A stretch of 30,841 nucleotides of DNA from contig JBBFKZ010000017.1 of the NCBI GenBank assembly GCA_037481775.1, forward strand, positions 1 through 30,841, written 5' to 3'. Each line of letters opens with the position of its first letter. Positions within the stretch are counted from its first letter, which is position 1. The notes under the pieces were generated by a model. It saw only the letters and a program-made list of their open reading frames with translations. It was not told the DNA's origin and did no database searches. A program made the translations under genes and the position numbers. Positions 20,292-23,522 of the stretch are shown in pieces. The DNA comes from Candidatus Bathyarchaeia archaeon. GTDB lineage: Archaea; Thermoproteota; Bathyarchaeia; Bathyarchaeales; Bathycorpusculaceae.

Positions 20292-21086
20292 GTGGAAATA
20301 ATGCGCAGGCTGGAAATAACAAAATACGACCTCGCGACAAGGACCTCCAAAAAAATGGTGGATTACGTGGCAGAAGAGAAGCCATTGCACATATTTGTAA
20401 ACACTACTTACTGGGCAACAATACTCTGCTCACCATTAAATCTTAAGGAGATGGCAGTAGGGCACCTATTATCAGAGGGAATTCTAAAATCAACTGAAGA
20501 AATTAGGGAAGTAGAATTAAAAGAAAAAGAGGGAACATGCCACGTAAAACTGCAACCTGCAATAAACCTTGAGGAACGCTTAAGCCTCTCGAGACTTCAC
20601 CAACGCGTAGTAACCTCTGCATGCGGCGGGCAATCAATATATCAGTACCAACGAAAACCAGCAAAGGTAACCTCAAGCTTGACAGTGAAAGCTGACGTAC
20701 TCTTCAACGCCGTCAACCAGCTAAACTTTAAAGCGGAAGTTTTTAGACAAACCGGAGGCGTGCATGCGGCAGCCCTCTATACCGCCGACGGAGCCCTTGT
20801 GGCTATGGCTGAAGACGTCGGCAGACATAACGCGGTTGATAAGGTAATCGGTATGGCGGCGCTCAAGCAAACTTGCTTCAGCGAATGCTTTTTAGCATCT
20901 ACAGGGAGACTATCAGGCGACATAGTGTTCAAAGCCGCAAAGGTTGGTTTACCGATTGTGGCGTCCTTGGGCGCTGCGCTGGACTCCGGCGTCGACATGG
21001 CAGAAGCCGCAAACTTGACGTTAATCGGGTTTGTCCGCGGAAAACGTATGAACATTTACACTTTCGCGGAGAGAATTCTCTCGTAA
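20292..21086 (+). CDS. fdhD: FdhD-family sulfurtransferase for Mo/W-bis-PGD cofactor
   Basis: VAEEKPL, AVGHLLSEG, TGGVHAAA, EDVGRHNAVDKVIG, TGRLSGDIVFKA, LIGFVRG. Confidence 0.93.
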   Translation: MEIMRRLEITKYDLATRTSKKMVDYVAEEKPLHIFVNTTYWATILCSPLNLKEMAVGHLLSEGILKSTEEIREVELKEKEGTCHVKLQPAINLEERLSLSRLHQRVVTSACGGQSIYQYQRKPAKVTSSLTVKADVLFNAVNQLNFKAEVFRQTGGVHAAALYTADGALVAMAEDVGRHNAVDKVIGMAALKQTCFSECFLASTGRLSGDIVFKAAKVGLPIVASLGAALDSGVDMAEAANLTLIGFVRGKRMNIYTFAERILS

Positions 21087-22066
21087 GGATCAACGGCAAC
21101 TTGTGGAAAAGGCGTTGCCTTACCATTTCTTACGAGAAGGCGATTTTTGCTTTTAGTGAAAACACCTAAAAAACTCGCAAATAAACCGTTTTCACGTAAA
21201 ACTTTTTCCACAAGCTCTTTAGCTTGAGCATCCACAGCCGCTATAACTAGGCCAGTTGAAGACATCGACAAAACCTGCTCATCTGAAAGCTGAAAAGTAT
21301 CTTGCAACTTTCGCACTTCCGGGCTTATTGGAATTTTTTCGAAAACCACATTAAAACCTAAGTCTGAGGCAAGGGCTATCTCATTGAGCGCAGCCACTAA
21401 GCCGCCTTCGGTGGCATCATGCATGGCATGAACAAAGCCTGTCTTAGCAAGCTGTAAAACTTCCCTCACGCAACTCTGCATGCGCATAAGCCCAGAAAGT
21501 TTTTCAGCTTGCGCGGCGCCAAATAACCTCTGCGCCAAAGCCTTATGCGTCAACGAAAAGTTGGCGAGAATTTCTAAGCCAATTTGCTTAGTGCATAAAA
21601 TTAGGTCTTCGGCTTTAGCATTTGCTGGCGTAATTAACTGATGTTTCTCCACGGGGCCATATGCGGTGCAGACGCCTACTAATTCTGATAAGCCAGCATA
21701 CATGCCAGTATGCCCAGTTACGATGGCAATTCCTAATTCATCAGCAGCACTGCACACTTGCTCCATAGCCACTTGAAGAACCTGCGGCTCGGCAGATGAC
21801 GGCGCAAGCAGGTTAATTGTACAGAATTCTGGCTTCGCCCCGAAAAGCGCCACGTCGGAAGCTGCATAATTGATTAGTAGCCAACCGAACCATTCTCTGG
21901 GAACGCCGATGCATGGGTCGGTGGAAACAACCATGTATTTATCGCCTAGTAGGTGCACGCCTGAATCGAAGCCTGGAAAAGGCGGCACGATCACTCGAGG
22001 GTCTCTTTTTATGCAGCTTAAAAGTTTTTGAAGCTCATCTAGCCCAAGTTTGCCCATGGACTTCAT
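21056..22066 (-). CDS. AIR synthase-related (PurM/HypE/ThiL-fold) protein
   Basis: GFDSGV, VVSTDP, AASDVALFGAKP, IVTGHT, AMHDATEGGL. ATGA overlap with the upstream ATPase gene. Confidence 0.85.
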   Translation of the reverse strand: MKSMGKLGLDELQKLLSCIKRDPRVIVPPFPGFDSGVHLLGDKYMVVSTDPCIGVPREWFGWLLINYAASDVALFGAKPEFCTINLLAPSSAEPQVLQVAMEQVCSAADELGIAIVTGHTGMYAGLSELVGVCTAYGPVEKHQLITPANAKAEDLILCTKQIGLEILANFSLTHKALAQRLFGAAQAEKLSGLMRMQSCVREVLQLAKTGFVHAMHDATEGGLVAALNEIALASDLGFNVVFEKIPISPEVRKLQDTFQLSDEQVLSMSSTGLVIAAVDAQAKELVEKVLRENGLFASFLGVFTKSKNRLLVRNGKATPFPQVAVDPYERILSAKV

Positions 22067-22785
22067 GAACCTTTAGTTTTCTCTAGCATCTCTATGCCTC
22101 TGTGGGTTATTTTGAAGGGAATCCAACCTAACGGGTGCTCGCAGCCCTCCATTTTGACGATGCGCATTTCGCGTTGAAGGGTTTCTTCGTTAAAGCGGAA
22201 AAAGAATATGTTGTGCGCTTTATTCAAGTCGAGGTCGGTGGCTCGCTGCGTTGCGAGGTCTTTTTGTGTCGCGGCAGTCATTATATCAATGTTGACAATG
22301 TTATCATAATGAGACCAGTTTATTGTCCAGTCCTCGAGAAGCTCAGCATATTTCAAGTCGTAAAGGGAGAAAAGTTGTTCGCTGAAGTCTCCTGCAGCAA
22401 ATCGCGTCACTTGATTAGCAGAGATTAGGAATTTGTCGATACGCTTCATCTCCTCAAAATCGTCAAGACTGAAGTATGTTACGCGCGGATCTTTCGGAAA
22501 AGTACTGAAATGTGGAAAAGCTTGAATAGCAATGAATTTGCCCTCGTCGATGTATGGTCCAATGTTCCATCCAAAGGATTTGAAATACGCTATCAACCGT
22601 GGAAAAGGTTTGTCCATGACATCGTAAGCTACGGTTTCGCCTTGCTGAAGCCCTTGCCAAAGGAACTGCATGGCGAAAACGGTCTTTCCTGTTCCTGGCG
22701 GTCCGTAAAGAATGTTGCGAGAGCCTGATTCTATTCCGCCACCGATTAGTTCATCAAGCCCCTTTATTCCAGTTTTAAGCTTCAT
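22063..22785 (-). CDS. KaiC/RAD55-like RecA-superfamily ATPase, single domain, degenerate catalytic motifs
   Basis: KTGIKGLDELIGGG, Walker A GPPGTGKT, C-terminal RIVKMEG.EH...IPFKITHRGI. Confidence 0.85.
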   Translation of the reverse strand: MKLKTGIKGLDELIGGGIESGSRNILYGPPGTGKTVFAMQFLWQGLQQGETVAYDVMDKPFPRLIAYFKSFGWNIGPYIDEGKFIAIQAFPHFSTFPKDPRVTYFSLDDFEEMKRIDKFLISANQVTRFAAGDFSEQLFSLYDLKYAELLEDWTINWSHYDNIVNIDIMTAATQKDLATQRATDLDLNKAHNIFFFRFNEETLQREMRIVKMEGCEHPLGWIPFKITHRGIEMLEKTKGS

Positions 22786-22801: not shown

Positions 22802-23350
22802 TTAAAGGTAAATGCTCAACGCTTTGCTCTTCTGCAGAAGGTAGACGATTATGCCGCTGACAACAAGTTCGGGAACAAGGTAGCTTCCATTATACACTGC
22901 AGAGTACACGTATGGATTCAGCTCTGGAGCATACAATGGCGCCCAATAGACCACGCCAGCCACGAAATGCATTATAAAACGGCCTATGATGCCGGCGGCA
23001 GCGCCAAGTACAGGCTGCTTTTTAGTCCAACCAGCAACGCCTAGGATGCCGAAAGCTAGCGGGTAGTCCAGCAGCATCTGCACTGGATTAAGGAAATAGG
23101 GTTGGATAGCAAATTGTATTAAGCCGTATACTGCGCCTGCAAACAAGCCTACTTTTGGTCCCCGCCTAAGTGCAAGCCAAATGATCGGCACCATCGAGCC
23201 GGCAGTTATCGAGCCGCCTTGGGGCAAAGTATAGACTATTATGAAACTCAACGCGGTTGCCAACGCTACAAATATGGCGATTTCAGCCAATACCTTAGCT
23301 GCAACTTTATGTTCATTTATAGAAGTAGATTCACTTTTGTTCGCATTCAT
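22802..23350 (-). CDS. thiT: Thiamine ECF transporter S component ThiT
   Basis: LAEIAIFVALA, LPQGGSIT, RRGPKVG, PVQMLLDY, HFVAGVVYW, YSAVYNGSY. ATG 23350 follows the riboswitch; the track start at 23389 falls inside the aptamer. Confidence 0.93.
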   Translation of the reverse strand: MNANKSESTSINEHKVAAKVLAEIAIFVALATALSFIIVYTLPQGGSITAGSMVPIIWLALRRGPKVGLFAGAVYGLIQFAIQPYFLNPVQMLLDYPLAFGILGVAGWTKKQPVLGAAAGIIGRFIMHFVAGVVYWAPLYAPELNPYVYSAVYNGSYLVPELVVSGIIVYLLQKSKALSIYL

Positions 23351-23351
23351 G

Positions 23352-23449
23352 TTTTTTCCCTCCGCCAGTATTATCTGGTTCAGGTTCAAAGGGTCGACAG
23401 CGATTCAGCCGTCCTCTCAGCCGGGTCACAGCCCAGCTCCCCTAAACCT
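23352..23449 (-). promoter_or_regulatory. TPP riboswitch (THI element)
   Basis: Minus strand reads GTTTAGGGGAGCTGGGCTGTGACCCGGCTGAGAGGACGGCTGAATCGCTGTCGACCCTTTGAACCTGAACCAGATAATACTGGCGGAGGGAAAAAA. Conserved GGGG..GC, CTGAGA, ACCC, ACCTGA, TAAT and GCG.AGGGA elements with pairing stems, directly upstream of thiT. Confidence 0.95.
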
Positions 23450-23522
23450 TGCTTGGGGATAATGTTATTTAGTTGTATTTTAATTTTCCTAAAGTCTATA
23501 ATGCAATGGAGAAAATCGGGAG

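Follow-up and report, generated by a model that had tools for sequence, protein, structure and literature searches.

The stretch of DNA considered here (the window) comprises 30,841 nt of a contig (JBBFKZ010000017.1 of assembly GCA_037481775.1) from a Candidatus Bathyarchaeia archaeon. Its minus strand carries thiT, the gene for the S component of an energy-coupling factor (ECF)-type thiamine transporter, and immediately before it an RNA element whose identity, anatomy and probable mode of action are the subject of this article. Two further genes follow thiT, one for a KaiC/RecA-like P-loop ATPase and the other for a protein of the PurM/ThiL/HypE fold, and a gene for valyl-tRNA synthetase (ValRS) diverges from it (Table 1). 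When the entire window was scanned with cmscan against Rfam, the sole match at gathering threshold was to RF00059, the thiamine pyrophosphate (TPP) riboswitch. This match scores 67.1 bits, where the cut-off is 54.3, has an E value of 2.5e-11 and is untruncated, extending over model positions 1-105 of 105. A genome-wide search of the 1.82 Mb, 54-contig assembly returned one RF00059 match only, with the same score. The core motifs CUGAGA (which we take to be the pyrimidine-sensing side of the aptamer), ACCUGA and GCG-N-AGGGA are all present, and across 30 aligned relatives they are invariant or nearly so. An earlier note, made from the letters of the window alone, had read a complete TPP aptamer here, and judged by its sequence the element before thiT is indeed a genuine TPP riboswitch aptamer. 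The 3' end quoted in that note, GGCGGAGGGAAAAAAC-ATG, is found just so in the minus-strand reading, and the core from P1 to P1 that it had put at 23352-23449 is real, though placed here at 23351-23448.

Table 1. Features of the riboswitch-thiT locus in the window, with the pairing partners of the aptamer helices
Feature	Position	Strand	Basis or remark
Full RF00059 match	23339..23453	-	Rfam covariance model
P1 5' strand GGUUU	23444..23448	-	Rfam alignment; partner 23351-23355
P1 3' strand AAAAC, doubling as spacer between Shine-Dalgarno sequence and start	23351..23355	-	Rfam alignment
P2	GGG 23442-23440 with CCC 23393-23391	-	Model alignment
P3	23438-23432 with 23425-23419	-	Model alignment
CUGAGA core motif	23415..23420	-	Rfam alignment; UGAGA invariant in 30/30 aligned relatives
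P3a hairpin GACGGC-loop-GCUGUC	23396..23413 (stems 23413-23408 / 23401-23396)	-	Model positions 38-48
P4 5' strand CCUG	23381..23384	-	CCU pairs with AGG of the Shine-Dalgarno sequence
P4	CCUG 23384-23381 with GAGG 23362-23359	-	Outer (fourth) pair is a G.G mismatch
P5	23378-23375 with 23368-23365	-	Model alignment
Shine-Dalgarno sequence GGAGG	23359..23363	-	Embedded in P4 3' strand beside conserved GCG
TATA-like box TTAAAATA, presumed thiT promoter	23476..23483	-	AT-rich 8-mer in leaders
thiT, ECF-type thiamine transporter S component, 182 aa	22802..23350	-	ATG 23350
KaiC/RecA-like P-loop ATPase gene	22063..22785	-	16 nt past thiT; own GGAG Shine-Dalgarno sequence; same operon
PurM/ThiL/HypE-fold (AIR synthase-related) gene	21056..22066	-	Start overlaps previous stop (ATGA)
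ValRS gene	from 23523		Divergent

The 3' part of this aptamer is also the ribosome-binding site (RBS) of thiT. The Shine-Dalgarno (SD) sequence GGAGG, which the earlier note had seen in the 3' end of the aptamer, forms the 3' strand of P4, and the 3' strand of P1 makes up the spacer. P1 has its last pair at 23351 and the thiT ATG occupies 23350-23348, so that 0 nt are left between P1 and AUG, and there is no room for a separate expression platform, or for a terminator, as had also been noted from the letters. From GGAGG to the start the distance is 8 nt, and the genome-wide spacer peak is at 7-10 nt. P4 closes with a g-u pair in the Rfam model, and the first G of GGAGG takes the place of its u. 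In the window this G faces another G, and the base, so mismatched, serves the SD and not the helix. P1 itself (23448-23444 with 23355-23351) is a poor helix of one G-C pair, one G.A mismatch and three U-A pairs, and its duplex energy in the window is only -1.2 kcal/mol. A TTG at 23389 was considered as the start of thiT and rejected: it lies inside the aptamer, whereas the ATG at 23350 is at the position conserved in relatives. As to the gene itself, the open reading frame (ORF) scores 151.3 bits with PF09515 and 131.8 bits with TIGR02357, whose equivalog cut-off is 108.45, and it matches the solved ThiT structures 4tkr and 3rlb with E values from 1e-15 to 1e-12.

RNAalifold, applied to the aptamers of 27 relatives, recovered P2, P3, P3a, P4 and P5, with 24 pairs in all, of which 9 show compensatory changes, mostly in P3a. 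P1 was not recovered in these 27 aptamers and is visible in individual sequences. (The set is what remains of 32 unique aptamers when L008 and L011, which are near-copies, and L027, L028 and L036, which are without the usual start, are taken out.) The GACGGC/GCTGTC stem after CUGAGA, called extra in the earlier note, is thus real, and it covaries among relatives, 4 of its 6 pairs having changed on both sides. It is, however, no unusual addition, since it lies inside the Rfam model and is the known optional P3a, a helix that is given for 552 of 907 TPP aptamers by Barrick and Breaker (2007, PMC2258182).

Is an SD sequence of this kind what a ribosome of this archaeon would look for? Its 16S rRNA ends GGAUCACCUCCU and so carries the anti-SD CCUCC (3' end CCUCCU), which is complementary to GGAGG. 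With ORFs of at least 200 aa taken as long, and the longest start used for each, SD-like 4-5-mers at a spacing of 3-11 nt precede 373 of the 1137 long ORFs (32.8%) as against 1334 of 21348 internal start-like codons (6.2%), an enrichment upstream of genes of about fivefold; for GGAGG itself the counts are 67/1137 and 127/21348. Such figures indicate that the host initiates translation via SD:anti-SD pairing.

The arrangement is shared by close relatives. RF00059 matches occur in 28 of 41 genomes of the relatives of the window, this genome counted, and, with this genome set aside, in 21 of the 24 genomes of its own family. In Rfam scans the aptamer was found in 20/20 fetched loci and stands immediately upstream of thiT in 18 of the 19 thiT loci; one locus, L026, gave no RF00059 match at threshold. 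Once 6 exact duplicates were removed 32 unique aptamers were left, and of these 30 have the 3' motif CGGAGGGA, one has CGUAGGGA and one CGAAGGGA, which puts GGAGG in 30/32. In 27 of the 32, G-N-AGG is followed 6-10 nt later by an ATG, GTG or TTG that opens an ORF of 140 aa or more; L012, L019, L027, L028 and L036 are the exceptions. The last three, which form one subclade, have ATA at the thiT start position (ACATAAACC, against ACATGAAC in relatives), and in L028 an ATG follows this ATA in the same frame, 18 nt downstream; either the start has moved here or the ATA itself serves as a non-canonical codon for initiation.

Taken together, the anatomy and its conservation make it probable, in our estimation, that this is a TPP riboswitch without a separate platform, which turns translation of thiT OFF by occluding its RBS directly. 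Its features are those by which direct translation attenuation has been recognized, namely a start codon at most 15 nt from the core of the aptamer and an RBS supplied by a conserved, purine-rich 3' segment (PMC2258182): the thiT start is within 15 nt of the core and the RBS is inside the conserved aptamer. That TPP binds and that binding turns expression off is what we infer from this anatomy. The riboswitch would stand at the 5' end of the thiT mRNA, with the 3' strand of P4 as SD, the 3' strand of P1 as spacer and AUG next. With TPP plentiful, P1 and the P4/P5 arm would be locked into the three-way junction, the CCUCC of the small ribosomal subunit could not pair with GGAGG, and translation of thiT would go down; with TPP scarce, the weak P1 and the short P4 would open, making the RBS usable. 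Given an organism apparently unable to make thiamine, the switch would be a feedback control of vitamin import and possibly also of the co-transcribed PurM-like gene. The translational OFF switch by SD occlusion that the earlier note had put forward is therefore kept as the best reading, and its mechanism as a proposal.

A number of observations weigh against that proposal. Averaged over the 27 relatives, the probability of the SD being unpaired is 0.47 in the free ensemble and 0.38 with the aptamer enforced, which is a poor separation, and in the same relatives the aptamer fold lies on average 3.5 kcal/mol above the minimum free energy (MFE). P1 is so very weak that occlusion of the spacer and AUG would depend on tertiary and ligand energy that is not modelled. 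Among 32 further aptamers from the wider class and phylum, direct-type ones included, the first base of the GGAGG site is G 13 times, U 12 times and A 7 times; GGAGG is thus not required for the design, and its presence in 30/32 of the close group may be a matter of common descent. If the switch acted on the translation of thiT only, it is not obvious that the genes after it would be controlled, and the KaiC-like one brings a GGAG of its own. Finally, a 2021 paper gives the fluoride switch of Thermococcus as the only natural archaeal riboswitch to have been determined experimentally.

Might the same riboswitch do its work by a built-in strand exchange instead of by simple occlusion? We think this unlikely, though the folding of the leader gives it substance. 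In the TPP-free state the 5' strand of P1 with its flank (AGGUUUAGGGG, 23449-23439) would pair with CCUUUGAACCU (23392-23382), a pairing that would extend a shifted P2, remove the 5' strand of P4 and leave the SD single-stranded; binding of TPP would move the 5' strand onto the A-rich spacer, and P4 would be restored. The unconstrained MFE structure of the window leader is exactly this alternative fold at 37, 55 and 70 °C, with most of the SD region free, and the MFE structures of the 27 relatives pair the CCU of P4 with the 5' flank in 15 cases and are missing P4 in 19. Across 40 direct-type leaders the pairing of the 5' flank to GAACCUGA has a mean of -4.58 kcal/mol compared with -2.49 for shuffled flanks, and in 26 of the 40 it is stronger than P1; moreover, AAGG just 5' of P1 is conserved though it is without a partner in the aptamer. 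The alternative helix, however, is without compensatory changes (no covariation is possible where the 3' partner is the invariant aptamer core), and the median share of shuffles doing as well is 0.09, so that single cases are not significant. Direct-type leaders outside the order of the window are mostly without the pairing (-1 to -5.6 kcal/mol). The AAGGUUU flank recurs in long-leader switches of the same family that are linked to ThiC, and so it may simply have been inherited or belong to the initiator region. In just 5 of the 27 relatives does the MFE structure leave GNAGG unpaired throughout, and the near equality of the two ensemble values for SD accessibility tells against strand exchange as it does against simple occlusion.

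An action mainly on the RNA, be it transcription termination or an influence on the stability or processing of the operon mRNA, would make sense of the PurM-like gene following thiT in 19/19 loci, where joint control of the operon is sensible and translation-only control of thiT provides none; leaders of 30-140 nt elsewhere in Bathyarchaeia show too that other platforms exist in the class. Yet no terminator-like hairpin was found, there is no T5 run on the RNA strand from the aptamer to 22204, P1 abuts the AUG, and the conservation of SD and start positions in 27/32 relatives points to the ribosome as target, all of which makes action on the RNA very improbable to our mind. The idea we would credit least concerns origin and not mechanism, and was raised in the earlier note: acquisition of the riboswitch and thiT from bacteria, here considered as recent import of a cassette. 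The nearest ThiT clusters in a protein atlas mix Bathyarchaeota with Bacillota (the atlas cautions against taking such mixing as a sign of transfer), and a TPP riboswitch before thiT is usual in Bacillota, for instance in Lactococcus lactis (PMC8862789). Against this, TPP matches are found in 93 of 151 sampled Bathyarchaeia genomes and, elsewhere in the phylum, in four more families, the switches precede at least five thiamine gene families, a ValRS-thiT-PurM-like-FdhD neighbourhood is conserved across genera, and the G+C content of thiT, 47.5%, is close to the 45.1% of the window. With a distribution so broad, several target genes, a neighbourhood that is conserved and a composition that does not stand out, a recent joint import is unlikely. 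Direct occlusion of the SD stays the best reading of this locus.

Further upstream, 24 of the 30 aligned leaders have a TATA-like, AT-rich 8-mer at a distance of 28-39 nt before the GGGG of P2. Judged from the TATA-like box alone, the transcript would start at about 23450-23454, a few nucleotides before P1. The block around this box (GGAAAATTAAAATACAACTAAATAACATTATCCCC; minus strand, about 23455-23493) is far better conserved than a promoter requires, and its core (ATACRACTAMAYAA and flanks) is present in 13 of the 30 aligned leaders. Through duplicate loci the upstream gene could be checked for six of those 13 rows, and in every one (the window, L004, L007, L029, L032 and L033) it is a divergent ValRS. 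The block might be accounted for by a bidirectional promoter in shared use or by a site to which a regulator binds; with ValRS diverging in the checked rows, a shared promoter or syntenic conservation is the simpler reading.

The PurM-like gene follows thiT in 19/19 related loci (L021-L039), with the KaiC-like gene between the two in 7 of the 19, and probably belongs to the riboswitch-regulated operon; ValRS is divergent upstream in 12 of the 19 thiT loci. On the ThiL model the PurM-like protein reaches 83.7 bits (cut-off 184), and its best solved relatives are HypE. Since a true ThiL is encoded separately in this genome, and no TPK was found there, the linkage suggests that the PurM-like gene, always after thiT, may be a missing thiamine salvage kinase.

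The host is an archaeon outside Thermoplasmatales, as had been supposed. The genome contains an archaeal small-subunit rRNA (1500.6 bits), and all 19 ThiT relatives in the genome collection are in records of Bathyarchaeota, Bathyarchaeia or MCG-6, the closest being 88-91% identical and syntenic. The 16S rRNA gene (G000:C10:9418-10912) has a G+C content of 59.5% compared with 45.5% for the genome. A 16S G+C content well above that of the genome is typical of growth at raised temperature, and this, along with the isolate names of hot-spring type that some of the closest records bear, may hint at warm surroundings. Raised temperature is relevant to how a P1 of 5 pairs, rich in A and U, could work.

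Profile searches of this genome, 96.7% complete, did not find the ThiN/ThiR domain (PF10120), which in a control was found in 5 named genomes, and the earlier note's call for a search for thiR is thereby answered. Nor were ThiC, TPK or ThiE found in it; there is no convincing Thi4 (only short nucleotide-binding-motif matches), and for ThiD the 23.8 bits obtained are below the cut-off. What the genome does have is a true ThiL, at 270 bits, and two CbiQ/EcfT genes. No enzyme converting thiamine to thiamine monophosphate or TPP upstream of ThiL was identified in it. Since ThiT, two EcfT and ThiL are present and ThiC, ThiE and TPK were not found, the gene content suggests that the organism probably imports thiamine and is likely a thiamine auxotroph.

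How widely is this class of switch used by such archaea? The earlier note had treated its occurrence here as a rarity, a view that the 21/24 genomes of its own family already contradict, and so does an even sample of the class, in which 93/151 Bathyarchaeia genomes carry a TPP match (above the cut-off in 92), some having as many as 4 copies. Among high-quality Bathyarchaeia genomes the proportion is 64/95. In a sample of the phylum 30/151 genomes have a match; outside the class the matches fall in four families, with 8/13, 8/15, 2/5 and 2/3 genomes positive. In these non-Bathyarchaeia families (f42, f44, f49 and f56; L068-L074) the switches stand before ThiW and before solute-binding proteins of ABC type, with leaders of 35-55 nt. 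The first ORF after 34 other matches of class and phylum is ThiW in 11 cases, ThiT in 7, a solute-binding protein in 5, ThiC in 3, ThiD-ThiN in 2, a cytosine/purine-type (CytX-type) permease in 2 and unassigned in 4, of which two are probably wrong-frame picks; thiamine genes are thus downstream of 25 of the 34, and solute-binding proteins of 5 more. Other Bathyarchaeia TPP switches include ones with longer leaders, of 30-140 nt. Two members of the window's own family (L052 and L053) have a single TPP riboswitch before thiC, with a leader of 84-88 nt and the same AAGGUUU 5' flank. L052 keeps an ATG at the thiT-type position (offset 8) that opens a short frame only; it may be a remnant or a small upstream ORF.

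Families without TPP matches carry ThiN-domain genes, in 12/14 genomes (riboswitch 0/14), 7/7 (0/7) and 5/5 (0/5), and in the window's family ThiN occurs in 2/15 genomes. Four of the shorter ThiN proteins (302-325 aa; L083-L086, from G052, G045, G130 and G165) were examined. In them the ThiN domain comes after an N-terminal region of about 135 aa, in which 3 of the 4 have helix-turn-helix (HTH) matches, these being below the Pfam cut-offs; a ThiN domain after an N-terminal region with HTH is what we take to be the architecture of ThiR. Three of the four are from riboswitch-less genomes and one is from a genome with both systems. It seems, from sampled and related genomes and with no statistic attached, that RNA and protein regulators of thiamine genes alternate within the class.

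ThiR, reportedly described by Rodionov et al. in 2017 (J Bacteriol) as a ThiN-domain regulator of archaeal thiamine genes, would do the same feedback job on genes of thiamine transport and synthesis, but as a protein, a transcription factor on promoters, and not as RNA. ThiR-like proteins are present in other Bathyarchaeia families, with no ThiN-domain gene found in the window's genome. In the ThiR paper archaeal TPP switches are reportedly confined to Thermoplasmatales. A further-reaching proposal would unite both themes, having the thiT element as a strand-toggling device, in which the 5' strand of P4 (SD free) competes with the A-rich spacer (SD and AUG locked), and the TPP riboswitch as the main thiamine regulator of Bathyarchaeia, largely alternating with ThiR-like proteins between families. 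We are doubtful of it in this combined form. If it were true, a single RNA some 100 nt long would be both sensor and expression platform, perhaps functioning at raised temperature, and this would be the first natural TPP switch shown acting on archaeal ribosomes.

The element itself has well-known kin. The same core motifs, P1-P5 and optional P3a, set before a thiamine transporter, are found in the RF00059 or THI elements of Escherichia coli thiM and of the L. lactis thiT leader, from which the element in the window differs in its Bathyarchaeia host, its lack of a separate platform and its unusually weak, A-rich P1. E. coli thiM has a downstream anti-SD helix. The element in the window also has kin of another kind. 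With the cases of direct translation attenuation or occlusion (SAM-II, preQ1-I and some bacterial TPP switches) it shares the design, its start being 0 nt after P1 and its GGAGG in P4. TPP switches with the RBS in the aptamer were already predicted for bacteria in 2007, direct attenuation being commonest for TPP, preQ1 and SAM-I (PMC2258182). A 2024 review from the Batey laboratory (PMC10907184) calls this principle direct occlusion, but files TPP switches under strand exchange.

For archaea the record is thinner. Barrick and Breaker (2007, PMC2258182) give archaeal TPP switches as euryarchaeal only, and the riboswitch counts of McCown et al. 2017 are 79 for Euryarchaeota, 6 for Crenarchaeota and 1 each for Kor- and Thaumarchaeota, with none for Bathyarchaeota. 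In the literature searched, from which most subscription journals were absent, no publication on riboswitches in Bathyarchaeia or on archaeal thiT was found, nor an experimentally tested archaeal TPP switch of the direct type; automated genome annotation may already mark Bathyarchaeia TPP elements. The class of switch and its compact design are, then, already known, and no new mechanism is revealed; it is the routine use in Bathyarchaeia that is little described.

What the finding does convey is that a textbook switch of bacterial type is routine in a large, uncultured class of archaea, though archaeal riboswitches are regarded as sparse. At about 100 nt with the RBS included, the window element might serve as a thiamine-responsive part for archaeal genetics. 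For the organism itself, the riboswitch-thiT locus marks it as a likely thiamine auxotroph and points to the PurM-like gene as a candidate salvage enzyme.

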